43,318 nt of DNA from Candidatus Methanosuratincola sp. (GCA_029907755.1 JARYLH010000001.1:1-43318); one strand, 5' to 3'; counted from the stretch's first letter, positions 7,843-38,180 are shown. Made by a program: numbers and translations. The notes: generated by a model not told the origin, from the letters alone.

Positions 7843-8356
7843 TCTTCCTCTTGCTGTAGACCTTCCTCTTCAACGAATGTCCGCACACCTGGCAGGAGGT
7901 TAGCTTCTTGGACTGGTCGTATGTTGCACCGCATGCGGGGCAGTAGAGGAACCACCAGAACTCCTCAGAGATCCCCTTTGTGACCATCGGCTTGAAGTCG
8001 ATCGAGAGGAGTGTGCAGAGGTTCTGCAGGCTGTAGTCGTCGCTCACCACAAGTACGCTCTCGCCCTCACTGTCTAGCTCGAGAGCCAGTGCAACGACCT
8101 CGAGATCCGTTTCAGACAACACGGTGAGATCCCCGGTCGAGGAGGCACGGGTCTTGACTACGGTCACGAACTCGGGGCGCGGCGCCCTGACTTTGAGGCG
8201 CCCGCTCGCGATCGAGACCTCTGTCACAGAACGCGTCCTTCCAGCATAGAGCTCGGCCTCGACACCAGGGGTTATGTAATGCGTCCCCTCGACTACGCGC
8301 GGGTTGAACCCGTAGATTATTGCGGACGTGTCGAGCACATAGGTCTTGGATCCCAC
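7826..8356 (-). CDS. nob1: Nob1-like endonuclease (PIN domain plus C-terminal zinc ribbon)
   Basis: The N-terminus 'YVLDTSAII' is a PIN motif. The C-terminus 'CPACGATY...CQVCGHSL' is a zinc ribbon. At 176 aa the size matches archaeal Nob1. Confidence 0.7.
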   Translation of the reverse strand: MGSKTYVLDTSAIIYGFNPRVVEGTHYITPGVEAELYAGRTRSVTEVSIASGRLKVRAPRPEFVTVVKTRASSTGDLTVLSETDLEVVALALELDSEGESVLVVSDDYSLQNLCTLLSIDFKPMVTKGISEEFWWFLYCPACGATYDQSKKLTSCQVCGHSLKRKVYSKRKITGSF

Positions 8357-9201
8357 TATGCCTCAAACCCCATCTTCAGCGATTTCCTCACTTTTTCATA
8401 AAATTCCGCAGGGGCGGTCCTCAGGAAGACTGCTGGCGACCTCGACCGCTCCACGAAGACTTGCCCGCCCTCATCTAGATCCACAGAGGTCTGACCGTCC
8501 AAGATCAGCAACCCGCCGGATGAGCCTGGCAATAAACTGATCTCGACCCTTGCAGAGGAGGGAAGGATTACTGGGCGCACCCCGTGATGGAGAGGACAAA
8601 CGAAGACCAGCTCAATTACGTCCAAGTCAGGATCGATGAGCGGGCCGCCGGCGGAGAGGGCGTATGCGGTCGCCCCAGTAGTCGTTGACACAATGACTCC
8701 GTCGGCCATCCCACGGTGAATGTGCTTACCGTTTGCAGAAACTGAAAATCGGATTATCTTCGAAGGCCTCGCAGAGGTTACAAGCACCTCGTTCAGTGCG
8801 TCAGGGAGCGGACTCCCTTTGAAGACGACCGAGAGTCGGGTCTTGTATTCGAGATAGGTCTTGCCATCTAAGACGCGGGTTAGAGTTTCGGCAGCTTCTT
8901 CTGGGATCGTCTCACAGAGAAAACCCCGCGCCCCGACCTTTATCCCGAGTATTGGTGTCGATCCCACCACTTGGGCAGTCCGCATAATTGTGCCGTCTCC
9001 GCCCACAACTACAACTAGATCGGCTGACATCACCTCTGGGGTATTCCACTCAAAACCATCCACTTTCGGCACCCCCGTATAGTGGACCACCTCGATCCCA
9101 TTCGATGAGAGAAAGCGCCCCGCGTCCAAGGCTACCCTCGCAGCCTCCTCAGAATTCGGCTTGGCGACGATCCCTACTCTCGAGATCTTCAAAACATTCA
9201 T
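8356..9201 (-). CDS. nadK: NAD+ kinase
   Basis: 'VVVVGGDGTIMRTA' (GGDGT motif). 281 aa, with a typical PpnK/NadK layout. Confidence 0.85.
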   Translation of the reverse strand: MNVLKISRVGIVAKPNSEEAARVALDAGRFLSSNGIEVVHYTGVPKVDGFEWNTPEVMSADLVVVVGGDGTIMRTAQVVGSTPILGIKVGARGFLCETIPEEAAETLTRVLDGKTYLEYKTRLSVVFKGSPLPDALNEVLVTSARPSKIIRFSVSANGKHIHRGMADGVIVSTTTGATAYALSAGGPLIDPDLDVIELVFVCPLHHGVRPVILPSSARVEISLLPGSSGGLLILDGQTSVDLDEGGQVFVERSRSPAVFLRTAPAEFYEKVRKSLKMGFEA

Positions 9202-9365: not shown

Positions 9366-10391
9366 ATGGCCGAAATGACGCCGCGTAAACGTGCCCTTCT
9401 TTGCGTCACAGGCAACAAAAAGCGGGCGGACAGGATAAGCTGCATGGACACGCTGACCACAGCAACAGTCGAACAGATGAATGCAGTGAATGCGCCGTTC
9501 CCTGAGGCGAACAGGGATCCGCAGCTTGCTTTCAAGCTCGCAGCCGCTGCCTGGGAGGTAATAGGGCTAGAGGGTTTCAAACTGCCTTTCGACCTCTGTG
9601 TCGAAGCAGAGGCCTTCGGGTGCAAGATCAACTGGGGAAGGATAGACAGGCATCCCAGCGTAGAGACGCACGCCTTCAATGACCTGAAGGATCTCAAGAT
9701 TCCGGAGAACATTATTGAGACCGGCAGGTTTCCGCTGAAGCACAAGGTCGAGGAGATGCTCAGGAAGGAGTATGGCGACTACCTGCCCGTGATCAACCAA
9801 GTTACCGGGCCGTTCACGGTTGCCGGGCACATCTTCGGGATTGAGAAGTTCTGCATATGGACCAAGAAGAGACCGCTGGAGGAGGTCAAAGAGGCGCTAA
9901 TGCGCATATCCGAGATGAACATCGACGACTGCAAGAAGGCACTCCAGAGCGGAGCCGACATTGTCTGCATAGCAGACCCATCTGCGACCTCGGACATCCT
10001 GTCGCCACAGTTCTTCAGGGACGTGATGGTTCCAGTCTACCAGAACATGGCTAAGAAGATCGGGGCGCCCGTGGTGCTTCACATCTGTGGCAACACTTCG
10101 GCTTATCTGCCATACATTGCGGACACTGGATTCGACGCATTCTCGATTGATGCCCAAGTTGACCCCGCCTTTGCAAAGGCTATCGTGGGCGACAAGATAG
10201 CCGTAGTCGGTGGCGTACCGACGATTACTGCGCTGCTATTCGGCACGCCTCAGAAGGTCAGGGAGGCGGCGATTGATGCGATAAGGAAGGGTGTCGATGT
10301 GCTGATGCCCTCATGCGGCATCCCACCGAGGACTCCGACCGCGAACTTCAAGGCGATGGTCGAAGTAGCAAGATGCATGGTTTATGTGTGA
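9366..10391 (+). CDS. Uroporphyrinogen-decarboxylase-family methyltransferase (MtaA/MtbA-like, methylcobamide:thiol MT2 type)
   Basis: 341 aa. 'LHICGNT' (H-x-C) plus the later 'PSCGIPP' Cys match the MtaA zinc-ligand pattern. The fold pattern is UroD/MtaA-like throughout. Confidence 0.8.
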   Translation: MAEMTPRKRALLCVTGNKKRADRISCMDTLTTATVEQMNAVNAPFPEANRDPQLAFKLAAAAWEVIGLEGFKLPFDLCVEAEAFGCKINWGRIDRHPSVETHAFNDLKDLKIPENIIETGRFPLKHKVEEMLRKEYGDYLPVINQVTGPFTVAGHIFGIEKFCIWTKKRPLEEVKEALMRISEMNIDDCKKALQSGADIVCIADPSATSDILSPQFFRDVMVPVYQNMAKKIGAPVVLHICGNTSAYLPYIADTGFDAFSIDAQVDPAFAKAIVGDKIAVVGGVPTITALLFGTPQKVREAAIDAIRKGVDVLMPSCGIPPRTPTANFKAMVEVARCMVYV

Positions 10392-10401
10392 GGTGTTAGA
10401 G

Positions 10402-11076
10402 ATGGCAACTAGAGAGGAAATCATAAATGGGTTTGTAAAGGCAATAGTTGACGGGGACGAGGCAGCGGCTGCCAAGTGGGCAAACGAAGCGGTCGCGGCG
10501 AAACTAGACGCATACGAGCTCGTGACCAAGTACGGCGGCGACGCGATGAGTGTAGTTAACCAGAAGTACGAAAAGAAGGAGTACTTTGTCCCTGAGGTCC
10601 TCTGCTCCGCAAATGCGCTGAACGCGGCGGTGGAAGTGCTTACCCCCCACATGAAGGCGGACAAGACTGCTGTGCCTGCGAAAGTCGTCCTCGGAGTGGT
10701 CGAAGGAGACATCCACGACATAGGGAAGAACTTGGTCAAGATCATGCTCAGCGCTGCGGGATTCAACGTGATTGACCTAGGCAAGGACGTGCCGCTTGCG
10801 AAGTTCCTTGAGACCGCGAAGAAGAACAAGGCAGAGGTCGTCGGGATGTCTGCGCTGATGAGCACAACGATGCCAGCCATGAAGAAAGTGATCGATATGT
10901 TCACCCAAGCAGGAGCCAGGAACAAGGTCAAGATAATCGTCGGAGGCGGCCCAGTAACCGAGGAGTGGGCGCTCTCGATAGGCGCAGACGCAAGACCTCA
11001 CGACGCTTCAGCAGCAGTGGGAGTAACGAAAGATCTGGTGGCGAAGCTGAAGCAGGATCCGTCGAGTGCCTGGTAA
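10402..11076 (+). CDS. Corrinoid (cobalamin-binding) protein, MtaC/MtbC-like
   Basis: 'EGDIHDIGKN' (DxHxxG), 'MSALMSTTM' (SxL) and 'IIVGGGP' (GG) are B12-binding signatures, with a helical cap domain N-terminal to them. ATG 10402 follows GAGGTG. Confidence 0.85.
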   Translation: MATREEIINGFVKAIVDGDEAAAAKWANEAVAAKLDAYELVTKYGGDAMSVVNQKYEKKEYFVPEVLCSANALNAAVEVLTPHMKADKTAVPAKVVLGVVEGDIHDIGKNLVKIMLSAAGFNVIDLGKDVPLAKFLETAKKNKAEVVGMSALMSTTMPAMKKVIDMFTQAGARNKVKIIVGGGPVTEEWALSIGADARPHDASAAVGVTKDLVAKLKQDPSSAW

Positions 11077-13765: not shown

Positions 13766-14146
13766 TCATTAGTACTTCATACTTCTATTTTACTTTTCGT
13801 TTTGACCGATTATTCTTTGAATGAAATCGAGCCTAAAATCCAAAATTGTGTTCTCATAATTTGCTGTCTGATGAACCTTCATAAGTGAAGCAGGTGCTAG
13901 GGAACCAGTTGAGAATGCTCCTTGCGACCATGCCAGCCTCTGTCCAAGCTGCCGATACAACCGCGCAGGGAACGACACACTCAGGACCTAGCTTCGAGGA
14001 AGCTATGACATAAATAGGGTTCTTCAGGATGGGTTGGGCCAAGTCCTTTACGCTGATTTCGCCGAGGGACTCCCCGTACGCCTTAACTCTTGGGCAAGTC
14101 GTGTTGAGGCTTATTTTTATCGAAGATCCTTGGAAAAAAGGAGTGT

Positions 14147-14971
14147 TTAGAATGGTGCAAATATGCCAATGAAAACCAGCCAAGCCAAGATTGTTTTCGC
14201 CACGAGGCTCAATAAAATGTAGACCCTCTCGCCATGGAGATAGTCTTTCCACTTGCCGATCCCCTTGTACTGTAGGAGCATGTTGATCGAGAATGTGTTG
14301 AACATTATGAAATAAAGGACGAGAGCCAAGTAGACGAATGTCGGGGGGCTTGTGCCAGTTGAATTCAGAGCGGCTACAAAGTAAGCCGCCATGACCACCC
14401 ACGGAGTGAACCCAGAGATGCAGCCCAACAAATAGGGAGACCAATCGATCTTCTTCGTATACTGGTTGATCTTCTCCATCAGGTAACCGAACATTATCAT
14501 CATCGCATTCAGTACGAAGATCATGACGAGGGACCACAGATCCCAGACCCCGACAAACGTAGCCAAGATCACGAGCATGATCGAGCTTGAGAACGCGTAC
14601 TCATACCAGCGGTAAGGGTTCATCCCTCTTTTCAGGTACTCTGTGTATTGCCTGGTCCTTGCGAATGCGATAATCATGTGTGTGGCTGCCGAGATCAGAA
14701 GGAAAGATGCCAGTATCACTCCCAGATACGTGATTGTGAAGGCGACCTGAGGATTTGGAACAACCTGGAAGACAGGAGGGGCAGACGGAATCACTTCGAA
14801 CTTGAGGTAGAAGGTGTAAATGTCCCGTTCCCATGCTAAGAGGGTGCCCAAGGCCAGCATGATAATTCCTTGCACCAAGTGGAGTGCGCCCGCAGCGATG
14901 TTCAGCTTCCTGAGGCTTCCCATGGTTATGGGGGATCTTGCGATCAGCTCTCTCCTCAAATCATTGTCCAT
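14147..14971 (-). CDS. Heliorhodopsin (7-TM retinal protein, inverted topology family)
   Basis: 274 aa. There is block-by-block similarity to heliorhodopsin 48C12 as I recall it. 'LHLVQ' matches 'FHLLQ'. 'NPYRWYEYAFSSSIMLVILA' matches 'NIFRWVEYSLSSSVMIVLIA' (counterion Glu). 'LQYKGIGKWKDYLHGERVYILLSLVAKTILAW' matches 'LQYKGKGKWSNYLRGERAYIVLSLVAKSALAW' (Schiff-base Lys). GGAG lies 9 nt upstream of the ATG. Confidence 0.9.
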   Translation of the reverse strand: MDNDLRRELIARSPITMGSLRKLNIAAGALHLVQGIIMLALGTLLAWERDIYTFYLKFEVIPSAPPVFQVVPNPQVAFTITYLGVILASFLLISAATHMIIAFARTRQYTEYLKRGMNPYRWYEYAFSSSIMLVILATFVGVWDLWSLVMIFVLNAMMIMFGYLMEKINQYTKKIDWSPYLLGCISGFTPWVVMAAYFVAALNSTGTSPPTFVYLALVLYFIMFNTFSINMLLQYKGIGKWKDYLHGERVYILLSLVAKTILAWLVFIGIFAPF

Positions 14972-15003
14972 AGATAATTCTCCTGCACATAGAAGCTCAT
15001 TCG

Positions 15004-15015
15004 CATTTAATAAAG
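15004..15015 (-). promoter_or_regulatory. Putative TATA box for the heliorhodopsin gene (minus strand CTTTATTAAATG)
   Basis: AT-rich box about 35-45 nt upstream of ATG 14971. Confidence 0.35.
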
Positions 15016-15043
15016 TTTTACAATTATTTCTTCATTTTTAAAT

Positions 15044-15307: not shown

Positions 15308-15703
15308 ATGTCAACGAAACCTGTTGAAATTGGCTCCCTGAAAGAGGGCAGCTTCGTGGTCATAGACGGTGTGCCCTGTAGGGTCGTCTCAATGGAGAAG
15401 TCGAAGACCGGAAAGCACGGCTCAGCGAAAGGCAGGGTTGTTGCGGTCGGCATCTTTGATGGCATTAAGAGAAACATCGTTGCACCTGCAGACCAGAGGG
15501 TAGACGTGCCGATAGTGGAGAAGAGGGCTGCCCAAGTCATCTCAATCACGCCAGACTCGGTTCAGCTGATGGATCTGGAGAGCTATGAGACGTTTGAGGT
15601 AAAGAAGCCGAAAGACGAGGAGGTAATGGCGAAGATAGCCCCAGGTGCTGAGGTCGAGTACTGGGACATACTGAATGAGAAACATATAATGAGGGTAAAG
15701 TAA
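15308..15703 (+). CDS. eif5a: Translation initiation factor 5A (aIF-5A)
   Basis: Hypusine-site motif '[13 protein letters not shown]'. 131 aa. Confidence 0.95.
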
Positions 15704-36800: not shown

Positions 36801-37011
36801 CGCCGACCTGAACGTCGACGACTACATCAAAGCGTTTGTGAAGGCACCGTCGGAGGATGTGAGGAGGGCGCTCGAGAGCAGGGCGACGCAGATCGCAGGC
36901 GAGGTCAGGGCAAAGGAGCTCAGGATATCGCTGCAGGAACCGGATTTTGGTGCCCCCGAGGAATGGGAGATCGAGGGGGAGAAGTACACCATAAGCATCG
37001 AGAAGATCTAG
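33844..37011 (+). CDS. ileS: Isoleucyl-tRNA synthetase
   Basis: 1055 aa. 'PPYVTNPIHVGTAWNKILKD', 'WTTTPWTLPAN' (editing domain), zinc motifs 'CPRCETV' and 'CWRCKTPL', and a KMSKS-position loop reading 'AMHKS'. Confidence 0.95.
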   Translation: MSRIGKMPKDYRSKPVEEGVFAYWQERAIEEKVRGAGQGKFYFLDGPPYVTNPIHVGTAWNKILKDAYIRFYRMNGFRVRDQPGFDMHGLPIEVMVEKKIGIKSKKEIERMGIENFIEACKSFALENLQIATRQFKNLGVWMDWDGPYRTLDNHYIESVWAMLKRADERRLLGKGKKVVHWCPRCETVLAGYEATDEYRELEEESIYVKFKVEGKENEYILIWTTTPWTLPANAAVMVHPDFMYVRARSGGETYILAEARLEHVFSDPGKEYEVLERFPGSYLRRLRYRAPLLEEVPEQSRLSPAHLVVLSDQFVTLEEGTGCVHTAPGHGEEDHAVGEEYGLPDFCPVDERGLFTEEAGKYAGKSVRETNGEIIEDLKSKGLLFKTEKTKHRYPHCWRCKTPLILRTASQWFIRVTDLKERLLEENEKVEWIPDWAGKARFGNWIKNAKDWVISRQRYWGIPLPIWVCGSCGKHRVIGSIEELRENAPGTGDVEPHRPWVDRIRLKCECGGEMQRVPDVADVWMDSGSASFACLGYPKSREEFERWWPADLILEGQDQTRGWFYTLMVCSVVLFNEAPYKRVLMHGFTTAQDGRAMHKSLGNVVFPEEVIEKFGRDTLRWYELGCTTWEDLRFTWKSIEETARFLNILWSTYYFASLYMNLDNFDPGEHTIGDVEKHLRLEDRWIISKLEGLIKRVTEAMAGCRVFDAVRDLEEFMRDDVSRWYIKLIRRRTWTEEEDPEKIAAYATLSHVLLNYLKLIAPIVPFMSEEIYRHVFAGLEGMPESVHMLRWPSASEERMDPELEDEMKVVKEVIEASFSARQAARIKTRMPLLRMKVVTGSESVKAAVERMRGVIEDQANVKEVEVITPEEGWRMKDVVLIPNRSILGPIFREKSGLVSSAISALNGKEVIEAFERGEGVWVEVEGLGRVEVRKDYVSVHERLPENYRSEKCRYGEVFIDTTRSDELLAEGLARDVVRRIQEMRKRADLNVDDYIKAFVKAPSEDVRRALESRATQIAGEVRAKELRISLQEPDFGAPEEWEIEGEKYTISIEKI

Positions 37012-37055
37012 ACGAGGCGCGCCTCCCCCGAGCGGCAATTGGGGGCGATCACAAA

Positions 37056-38180
37056 ATGCCTGGGATCAGAAGGGCGGGGCTAATCGTAAACCCCGTGGCG
37101 GGAATGGGCGGAGCGGTGGGGCTGAAAGGCACGGACGGCTTGGTCGAGACAGCCCTCCAGCTCGGCGCTGTCCAGGTGTCCGTCGGCAGGGCAGTCAGGT
37201 TCCTGGGGAAATTGAAGCCCTTGGGAGGGGCGATTGATTTCGTGACGTGCCCAGGCGAGATGGGGGAGGAAGCGTTCCGGAGGGCATCCCTACCATTCCG
37301 GATGTTGAGCGGGATGGAGAGGAAGGGGAGGACGACGAGCGATGACACCAAGCTGGCAGCTGCCAAGATGCTCGAGGAAGGGGTCGAGGTGATTGCATTC
37401 TGCGGAGGGGACGGAACCGCAAGGGACATCTTCGACACGGTTGGGGACAGGGTTCCGGTGATAGGCATCCCTGCGGGAGTAAAGATGCACAGCGGGGTAT
37501 TCGCCGTGAGCCCCGAGGCAGCCGCCGGGATCCTCGTAAGGTTCCTTTGGGGCGAACTTCCTCTGAAGGAGGCGGAGGTGGCAGATGTGGACGAGGAAGC
37601 TTTCAGGCAGGGGAGGGTCTCATCAAGGATATATGGATACATGAATGTCCCCTACGACCCGGAGAGGGTTCAGGGCACGAAGGTCGCATCGCAGTTGATT
37701 GGTGATGTCAGCGAAAACGCCCTGGCGATAGCAGAGTGGATAGTGGAGGGGATGGAGGGGGGCGTGACTTATGTGCTCGGCCCGGGAAGCACCGTCAAGA
37801 AGATCAACCAGGTCCTCGGCATCGAGGGGTCGCAGCTCGGCGTCGACGTCGTAAGGGACAAGAGGCTGGTTGCAGCAGACGCCTCGGAGGAGATCGTCTT
37901 CAGGAATGTCAGAGACGGAAAGGCGAGGATCATAGTTTCCCCGATAGGGAACCAGGGGTTCATCTTCGGAAGGGGGAACCAGCAGATAAGCCCAAGGGTG
38001 ATCAGGGCAGTAGGGAAGGAGAACGTTCTCGTGATAGCCACAAGGGAGAAGTTGAGGTGGACCAGATGCCTTAGGGTCGACACAGGTGACCCAGAGATCG
38101 ACGCGCTTTTTTTGGGGCCTATGAGAGTGGTAGCAGACTACAACTTCGCTAAGATTATGATGGTCGCAGGGACGGAGTGA
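37056..38180 (+). CDS. ATP-NAD kinase-fold protein (COG3199-like, uncharacterised)
   Basis: 'GLIVNPVAGMGG' and 'FCGGDGTARD' (GGDGT) with a longer two-domain layout. I trimmed the start to ATG 37056. Confidence 0.65.
   Translation: MPGIRRAGLIVNPVAGMGGAVGLKGTDGLVETALQLGAVQVSVGRAVRFLGKLKPLGGAIDFVTCPGEMGEEAFRRASLPFRMLSGMERKGRTTSDDTKLAAAKMLEEGVEVIAFCGGDGTARDIFDTVGDRVPVIGIPAGVKMHSGVFAVSPEAAAGILVRFLWGELPLKEAEVADVDEEAFRQGRVSSRIYGYMNVPYDPERVQGTKVASQLIGDVSENALAIAEWIVEGMEGGVTYVLGPGSTVKKINQVLGIEGSQLGVDVVRDKRLVAADASEEIVFRNVRDGKARIIVSPIGNQGFIFGRGNQQISPRVIRAVGKENVLVIATREKLRWTRCLRVDTGDPEIDALFLGPMRVVADYNFAKIMMVAGTE

Follow-up and report, generated by a model that had tools for sequence, protein, structure and literature searches.

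What a heliorhodopsin (HeR) does in a strictly anaerobic methanogen, where its retinal would come from and which protein it would act upon are the questions raised by a stretch of 43,318 nucleotides from Candidatus Methanosuratincola sp. (GCA_029907755.1, JARYLH010000001.1:1-43318), referred to here as the window. Our results confirm that the protein encoded on its minus strand is a genuine, intact heliorhodopsin. The explanation that we regard as likely is that it is a functional, retinal-binding, non-pumping photosensor, which works with a partner to which the locus does not point and with a chromophore scavenged from outside the cell.

The assignment to the family had been made in a preliminary description of the window from four sequence motifs, all of which are present in the 274-residue open reading frame (ORF): LHLVQ at residues 30-34, AATHMII at 95-101, RWYEYAFSSS at 121-130 and GERVYILLSLVAKTILAW at 247-264. 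The start codon is backed by the homologues, all of which have the N-terminus MDN[DE]LRRE. The protein matches the Pfam profile PF18761 (Heliorhodopsin) over positions 1-241 of 242, with an E value of 1.8e-91 and 306.3 bits against a cut-off of 26.7, and the NCBIfam model NF038020 (HeR) with an E value of 1.7e-101 and 338.8 bits against a cut-off of 100. Among PDB sequences only heliorhodopsins are matched, with E values of 1.1e-54 for TaHeR (6is6) and 2.8e-47 for 48C12 (6su3). Residues were mapped by alignment to TaHeR and to a chain with 48C12 numbering (9ljj), and the roles proposed earlier for His31, His98, Glu124 and Lys259 turned out to be correct. The Schiff-base Lys259, in the seventh transmembrane helix (TM7), aligns with Lys238 of TaHeR and Lys241 of 48C12. 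The counterion Glu124, in TM3, aligns with Glu108 and Glu107, and stands beside the conserved Arg121 within RWYEY. His31 corresponds to His23, and His98 to His82 of TaHeR and His80 of 48C12. Ser94, Arg121, Ser128, Asn225, Gln234 and Ser255 are also in register.

The predicted fold agrees with this assignment. An AlphaFold2 model built with 40 homologues (pLDDT 89, pTM 0.83) has seven helices (residues 17-42, 83-114, 119-139, 145-168, 178-204, 211-236 and 244-271), and two strands (48-61 and 67-81) form between TM1 and TM2 the long beta-hairpin that is typical of HeRs. In Foldseek searches the model superimposes best on TaHeR (6is6 and 7u55; TM-score 0.83-0.92, root-mean-square deviation 1.6-2.0 Å, E 5e-18), followed by 48C12. 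For the alternative, that a type-1 microbial rhodopsin or some unrelated protein with seven helices was misread as HeR, we found no support. Type-1 rhodopsins occur only as distant fold matches: HeR structures are retrieved with E values between about 1e-18 and 1e-13, type-1 proteins with 2.5e-3 or worse and with a TM-score of at most 0.62 at 11-17% identity. Heliorhodopsin is, moreover, the sole Pfam family matched at E <=0.01, with no match to PF01036. The distribution of charges, evaluated in silico by the positive-inside rule, places 16 Lys and Arg residues in the N-terminus and in the TM2-3, TM4-5 and TM6-7 loops, against 2 on the opposite side. This bias fits the inverted topology, with the N-terminus inside, that defines the HeR family and is the opposite of the N-out arrangement of type-1 rhodopsins. 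Since profile, fold and topology agree, a type-1 or unrelated protein is excluded for practical purposes. The outcomes that the preliminary description had named as refuting its reading, a misaligned Lys or Glu or a grouping with type-1 rhodopsins, did not occur.

TaHeR, from the Thermoplasmatales archaeon SG8-52-1 (PDB 6IS6, 7U55, 7CLJ), is the nearest solved structure, both by sequence (40-41% identity) and by fold. Its residues His23, Ser78, His82, Arg105, Glu108, Ser112, Asn204, Gln213, Ser234 and Lys238 are all matched in the window protein. The lateral fenestration of the latter is lined by Tyr180, Cys184, Gly187, Phe224 and Ser228, of which the first four are identical to Tyr164, Cys168, Gly171 and Phe203 of TaHeR, and the fifth replaces Ala207. 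Compared with TaHeR, the window protein has about 8 more residues at the N-terminus, a longer TM1-TM2 beta-hairpin and an insertion of 5 residues in the TM5-TM6 loop. The hosts differ as well, a member of Thermoplasmatota in the case of TaHeR and a thermoproteotal methanogen in the case of the window, whose protein is known from its sequence and model. 48C12, from a freshwater actinobacterium (PDB 6SU3, 6SU4, 6UH3, and 9LJJ with 48C12 numbering), has the same family and fold at about 38-39% identity, and shares the key residues His23, Ser76, His80, Arg104, Glu107, Ser237 and Lys241. In a published grouping (Chazan et al. preprint), 48C12 falls into group A, dominated by Actinobacteria, and TaHeR into group B, which is more diverse; the window HeR is nearer to TaHeR.

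These two proteins also bear on whether the window HeR moves ions. TaHeR and 48C12 reportedly do not transport ions, and they are the nearest characterised relatives of the window protein, with the same architecture of counterion and histidine pair. A light-driven or light-gated transporter, of the kind described for some giant-virus HeRs, could supply a methanogen with a supplementary ion gradient. Proton transport by some viral HeRs is cited in passages of PMC11109279 and PMC12873467, and the window gene stands alone with no obvious partner, as the viral genes do (PMC11109279). Given the shared architecture with two HeRs of the non-transporting kind, we consider ion transport very unlikely.

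The preliminary description had referred to Thermoplasmata and, if these were meant as the host, it was mistaken. The window has a GC content of 56% and is archaeal, and HeR together with 13 flanking genes is collinear with the complete genomes of Ca. Methanosuratincola verstraetei LCB70 (CP186953.1, locus L001) and M. petrocarbonis LWZ-6 (CP130488.1, locus L011). Most of the flanking genes are 90-98% identical to their counterparts in these two genomes, and the least conserved 75-84%. The window also carries an adjacent pair of genes for a methyltransferase of the MtaA/CmuA family and its cognate corrinoid protein, 96-98% identical to the versions of cultured Methanosuratincola. This synteny and the methyltransferase pair mark the host, a strict anaerobe, as a methyl-reducing methanogen within Methanomethylicia/Methanosuratincolia, in Thermoproteota, and not as a member of Thermoplasmata. 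M. petrocarbonis has been described as an anaerobic, thermophilic and non-motile coccus (PMC12244365), and therefore phototaxis is no candidate output of HeR.

The gene is under constraint. Against the LCB70 orthologue, the ratio of nonsynonymous to synonymous substitution rates (dN/dS) is 0.075 at a dS of 0.66, inside the range of the surrounding housekeeping genes, and the changes specific to the window lineage are 6 nonsynonymous and 29 synonymous. A wider comparison drew on the species representatives of GTDB, from which 80 loci with HeR relatives of 65-91% identity were taken. The clade to which the window protein belongs holds Methanobacteriaceae, Bathyarchaeia, a few other Thermoproteota and Methanomethylicia; its members are 65-82% identical and nearly all 273-274 residues long. 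Lys259, Glu124, Arg121, Ser255, Gln234 and Gly187 are kept in 81 of 81 members. These patterns indicate that HeR is maintained by strong purifying selection, and that it is the predicted retinal pocket that is conserved.

The histidine pair, with one residue in TM1 and one in TM2, is not universal in the HeR family, since 20 members from one Methanobacteriaceae subclade have Leu at the positions of both His31 and His98, always together. They are found in L018 (Methanobacterium oryzae DSM 11106), L017, L020, L021, L024, L025, L027-L031, L033, L035-L037, L042, L046, L048, L055 and L064. A HeR from Chloroflexi that lacks both histidines has been reported as red-shifted, with a weak M intermediate (Chazan et al. 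preprint).

A rough neighbour-joining tree, which carries no support values, places the Methanomethylicia proteins inside the methanogen-dominated half of the clade and not as a monophyletic group. One HeR from Methanobacteriaceae, at 82% identity, is as near to the window HeR as that of Methanomethylicus, at 81%. Both the tree placement and these near-equal identities suggest transfer of HeR between phyla. Together with the patchy occurrence of the clade across phyla, the disruption of the orthologue in LWZ-6 and the truncation of an adjacent DUF6951 gene in the window lineage (both described below), this might be taken to mean that HeR has no role in this genome, being either a relic that is no longer active or a gene that arrived recently by horizontal transfer. 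The reading frame is intact, however, and a dead relic is excluded by the dN/dS value. A divergent aIF5A/HeR pair in Methanomethylicus and in the metagenome-assembled genome (MAG) LCB019-004 indicates long vertical retention rather than recent arrival. Taking both sides into account, we hold a relic or newcomer without function to be extremely improbable.

The protein itself was already public. An identical sequence is present in NCBI (GCA_050411035.1) and in the JGI metagenome 3300038743, and another, with 94% identity, bears the label 'heliorhodopsin HeR [Candidatus Methanosuratincola sp.]'. The gene is thus already annotated correctly by automatic means, and the clade has already been drawn in the literature: cluster C10 (Bulzu et al. 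preprint) consists of HeRs from Bathyarchaeia and Methanobacteria, a composition that corresponds to the clade holding the window protein. As published, C10 has no members from Methanomethylicia or Methanosuratincola, and is given with no statement on gene context or function and no mention of SOUL or heme. Beyond that remark on C10, the literature searched for heliorhodopsin together with Methanosuratincola or Methanobacteri* held nothing relevant. The host range is widened only modestly, to Methanomethylicia.

The comparison between strains of the genus bears on function. In LWZ-6, an isolate from an oil field, the HeR orthologue (L011:8001-8804, at about 1,262,905-1,263,708 of CP130488.1) is frameshifted by indels of +2 near codon 43, -2 near codon 66 and -3 near codon 75, with two stops in the shifted stretch. 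Its closest intact relative is that of L086, with 92.8% nucleotide identity. Lineage-specific nonsynonymous and synonymous changes number 13 and 20 in LWZ-6, compared with 2 and 20 in L086 (Fisher p 0.015); a three-taxon test for relaxed selection in LWZ-6 that leaves out L086 gives p 0.076, which is suggestive only. The LWZ-6 protein has the changes W146R, G187C and L245P at sites that are invariant in the other 81 sequences, and V134E is a further radical change at a site that is invariant in the clade. The gene seems to have decayed recently, in a lineage whose habitat is dark. This is the pattern that should be expected of a light sensor that has become dispensable in a dark reservoir, and is consistent with a light-dependent role of HeR elsewhere.

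How such a sensor would work can be proposed by analogy. The HeR would span the membrane with seven helices, its N-terminus being cytoplasmic, and would hold retinal in Schiff-base linkage to Lys259, the counterion being Glu124 and the probable proton-accepting group His31 and His98. Characterised HeRs bind glutamine synthetase, a photolyase or an ABC transporter and thereby regulate them (PMC11109279). In a similar manner, the window protein is probably a light sensor with a slow cycle, which would modulate another protein by direct contact, most likely with no ion pumping. What our data demonstrate is that the protein belongs to the family, that its residues are in register, its fold, the purifying selection upon its gene and the synteny of the window. 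We infer that it binds retinal, that it senses rather than pumps, that its chromophore is exogenous and that its gene is expressed on its own.

The source of the chromophore deserves attention, as the known step by which carotenoids are cleaved to retinal requires O2. It had been noted before that the window has no gene of the blh/brp or crt type, and this stands: Pfam scans of its approximately 48 ORFs gave none, 8-9 of these ORFs having no Pfam hit of any kind. Because carotenoid and retinal genes are absent from the window, cleavage needs O2, blh is rare and the fenestration is conserved, retinal would probably be scavenged from the surroundings, entering through that lateral opening. The gene blh seldom co-occurs with HeR (Chazan et al. 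preprint).

The strongest rival explanation is that HeR has a job independent of light, holding a hydrophobic ligand such as a lipid, a fatty acid or a carotenoid at the fenestration, or serving as a membrane scaffold, and never binding retinal. The strictly anaerobic life of the host, the O2 requirement of known retinal synthesis and the lack of crt and blh genes in the window would all suit it. In addition, the fenestration is occupied by monoolein or alkane in HeR crystal structures, and a function in lipid remodelling has been proposed (Chazan et al. preprint). The invariance of the Schiff-base Lys, the Glu, the Arg and the pocket Ser and Gln in 81 of 81 members of a clade made up of anaerobes only is nevertheless hard to explain in the absence of a chromophore, and the gene decays in the sole lineage that comes from a permanently dark habitat. 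On balance, a light-independent role seems unlikely to us.

The partner would not be readable from the locus, because HeR appears to be a stand-alone transcription unit. Upstream of the ATG, at a distance of 34-43 nt, there is a TATA-like core, TTTATTAAAT (15005-15014), and LCB70 and LWZ-6 share the upstream block AATTGTAAAA-T-TATTAAAT in their orthologous regions. The motif CAGG[A/G]GA, which includes the Shine-Dalgarno-like sequence, is invariant in the 5 Methanomethylicaceae upstream regions aligned (5/5). After the gene, a run of six T starts 8 nt past the stop codon, and a T5-T6 tract occupies the same place in L001 and L011. The TATA-like box, the Shine-Dalgarno-like motif and the oligo-T tract past the stop, to which we assign their functions from their motifs, suggest that HeR is transcribed alone.

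The preliminary description had singled out the neighbouring genes as the most informative part of the window. This could not be sustained: in the 80 related loci they do not lie beside HeR outside Methanomethylicaceae, and HeR has promoter-like and terminator-like signals of its own. When 13 window neighbours were considered as possible partners, BLAST against these loci found them in the two Methanosuratincola genomes only. The divergent junction of aIF5A and HeR occurs also in Methanomethylicus mesodigestus (L083-L085) and in MAG LCB019-004 (L004), with a different downstream side, which points to vertical retention at a block boundary and not to a functional partnership. The window neighbours, conserved as they are within the family or the genus only, are hence uninformative as partners. 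Informative signals come instead from comparing genomes and from the genes next to HeR in sister lineages.

Ten families have been listed as neighbours of HeR in partner operons: glutamine synthetase, the synthetase of NAD+, photolyase, MerR, TerC, ABC transporter, SDR, alpha/beta hydrolase, DUF2177 and DUF2238 (PMC11109279). None of them flanks the window gene, which, unlike those partner-bearing transcription units, seems to be monocistronic. With the systems of glutamine synthetase, photolyase, the ABC transporter OmrDE and the other groups it probably shares the principle of light-activated modulation by contact.

Several points weigh against the photosensor explanation. Retinal binding and a response to light, for the window protein as for its clade, are predictions from sequence, and the promoter and terminator are sequence motifs alone. 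The argument for an exogenous chromophore draws on a window of 43 kb, on general knowledge and on the reported rarity of blh. The host is a strict anaerobe that lives in sediments, digesters, oil fields and hot springs, and in such places both light and retinal may be scarce. The decay of HeR in LWZ-6 concerns a single lineage, and exact and gapped pattern scans of JGI metagenome contigs did not find its frameshift allele.

The best lead to a partner for this HeR clade comes from the sister lineages. The ORFs that flank HeR in the 80 loci were clustered, and a Pfam census was made of 150 immediate neighbours. Both approaches pick out a single family, the SOUL heme-binding protein (PF04832), which makes up 27 of the 150 neighbours, followed by Pyridox_ox_2 with 8 and alpha/beta hydrolase with 6. 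HeR has a SOUL gene immediately upstream, in divergent orientation, in 21 of 34 loci from Methanobacteriaceae, in 9 of 39 from Bathyarchaeia or other members of TACK and in 0 of 3 from Methanomethylicia; L003:7107-7760 and L054:7334-7849 are examples (among L002-L077). The pairwise identities of SOUL and HeR proteins co-vary (Mantel r 0.81), a correlation that shared ancestry alone could yield. Inspection by eye showed no signal peptide or transmembrane segment in the SOUL proteins. Neither the window nor the Methanomethylicia loci hold SOUL or PNPOx-like genes, and a search of the window, L001, L011 and L004 for sequences resembling SOUL gave none. In the literature searched, no paper ties SOUL to heliorhodopsin, and two large neighbourhood studies make no mention of SOUL.

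Other features of these loci were also observed. The SOUL proteins contain copies of a KIxMTxPV repeat, 4-5 of them in Methanobacteriaceae and 2 in Bathyarchaeia. Pyridox_ox_2 genes (PNPOx-like, PF12900), the second commonest neighbours after SOUL, are found near HeR in 12 loci, in 8 of them as the immediate neighbour; 11 of these loci are from Bathyarchaeia or other TACK and 1 is from Methanobacteriaceae (L021), and they include L043, L045, L065, L070, L077 and L078. Tocopherol-cyclase-like genes (PF14249) adjoin HeR in 3 loci, and one of them (L002:6831-7838) sits between SOUL and HeR. Peroxiredoxin (AhpC/TSA) genes neighbour HeR in 3 loci, and PAS/histidine-kinase genes in 2-3.

The remaining genes around HeR in the window are listed, together with the expression signals, in Table 1. 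A spacer of 336 bp separates HeR from the gene of the translation factor aIF5A, which opens a housekeeping block with SRP54, an RNA methyltransferase, Pus10, L21e, RpoF, DUF655, KsgA and more. On the other side, the DUF6951 remnant covers only positions 25-94 of the 101 of its Pfam profile. The gene is intact, with 114 residues, in LCB70 (L001:8928-9272), LWZ-6 (L011:8927-9271) and L086 (L086:1304-1648), and a deletion of about 170 bp in the window lineage took the spacer and the first approximately 23 codons, including the start. The NCBI annotation (gene call in L081) extends the gene to a GTG at 14252, inside HeR. The remnant may be a pseudogene, or may be expressed from that GTG. The stretch is coding, as in alignments and six-frame translations the substitutions fall at third codon positions and a single frame is open in three genomes. 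A non-coding RNA in the 380-bp stretch between HeR and the gene of 119 codons was considered and ruled out, since the stretch codes for DUF6951; Rfam gave no hit there at gathering thresholds or at E values up to 1, and no tRNAs were found. A reading on the opposite strand was ruled out by stops that are conserved across the genomes.

The 119-residue membrane protein has no Pfam or NCBIfam hit and, among the 80 loci, has homologues in L001 and L011 only, with a dN/dS of 0.08-0.09. The overlapping genes of 121 and 534 codons likewise encode proteins with no Pfam or NCBIfam match. The larger one has a Cys/His-rich C-terminal tail, CEWAH...CDLEEALARGYDGCRYCMPEHHH, and is taken as a real gene because of its dN/dS of about 0.07. 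Two NAD kinase paralogues were observed in the same 43 kb, and that on the minus strand, with a dN/dS of 0.16-0.20, is among the fastest-evolving genes of the block.

Table 1. Coordinates of HeR, its putative expression signals and other genes of the window
Feature	Position	Strand	Remarks
Heliorhodopsin (HeR) coding sequence	14147-14971	minus	ATG-to-TAA ORF, 274 residues, intact
Putative archaeal BRE (transcription factor B recognition element)/TATA element	15000-15019	minus	AAAACTTTATTAAATGCGAA, read from sequence
Shine-Dalgarno-like GGAGA	14980-14984	minus	9-13 nt upstream of HeR start codon
Oligo-T tract, candidate archaeal terminator	14132-14141	minus	CCTTTTTTCC, 6-15 nt past HeR stop
DUF6951 (PF22263) gene remnant	13854-14129	minus	directly downstream of HeR, same strand
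Small membrane protein, 119 residues	13406-13765	minus	ORF; same strand as HeR
Overlapping genes of 121 and 534 residues	11322-13261	plus	conserved
MtaA/CmuA-family methylcobamide:coenzyme M methyltransferase and cognate corrinoid protein	9366-11076	plus	adjacent pair
aIF5A	15308-15703	plus	Pfam; divergent from HeR
NAD kinase	8356-9201	minus	
NAD kinase	36963-38180	plus	

Taken alone, the window HeR is one more well-behaved member of a known family. Its interest lies in what surrounds it in other genomes: the strong association with SOUL could lead to a partner of this family of orphan photoreceptors. The cultured Methanosuratincola, in turn, form a natural contrast, as LWZ-6 has a disrupted HeR, and the window lineage and LCB70 have an intact one. 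This contrast between strains makes both the role of a light sensor in a strict anaerobe and the source of its retinal directly testable.

The observations can be joined in a single tentative reading, to which we give a small chance, namely that the HeR clade of these anaerobes is a light alarm, with SOUL as its ancestral partner, a partner that was rewired in Methanosuratincola, and retinal that is scavenged or made independently of O2. Such an alarm would serve organisms that are rich in photolabile cofactors of the tetrapyrrole or flavin-like type (corrinoids, F430, F420). The ancestral partner would be the cytoplasmic, tetrapyrrole-binding SOUL protein, encoded divergently from HeR in about 40% of the sister-lineage loci. 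Methanosuratincola would have kept the sensor, and rewired or relocated the partner, and the chromophore would be scavenged retinal or the product of an undescribed O2-independent route. If this were true, SOUL would be the first conserved partner of an archaeal HeR, and the sensing of light by methanogens would acquire a physiological role.

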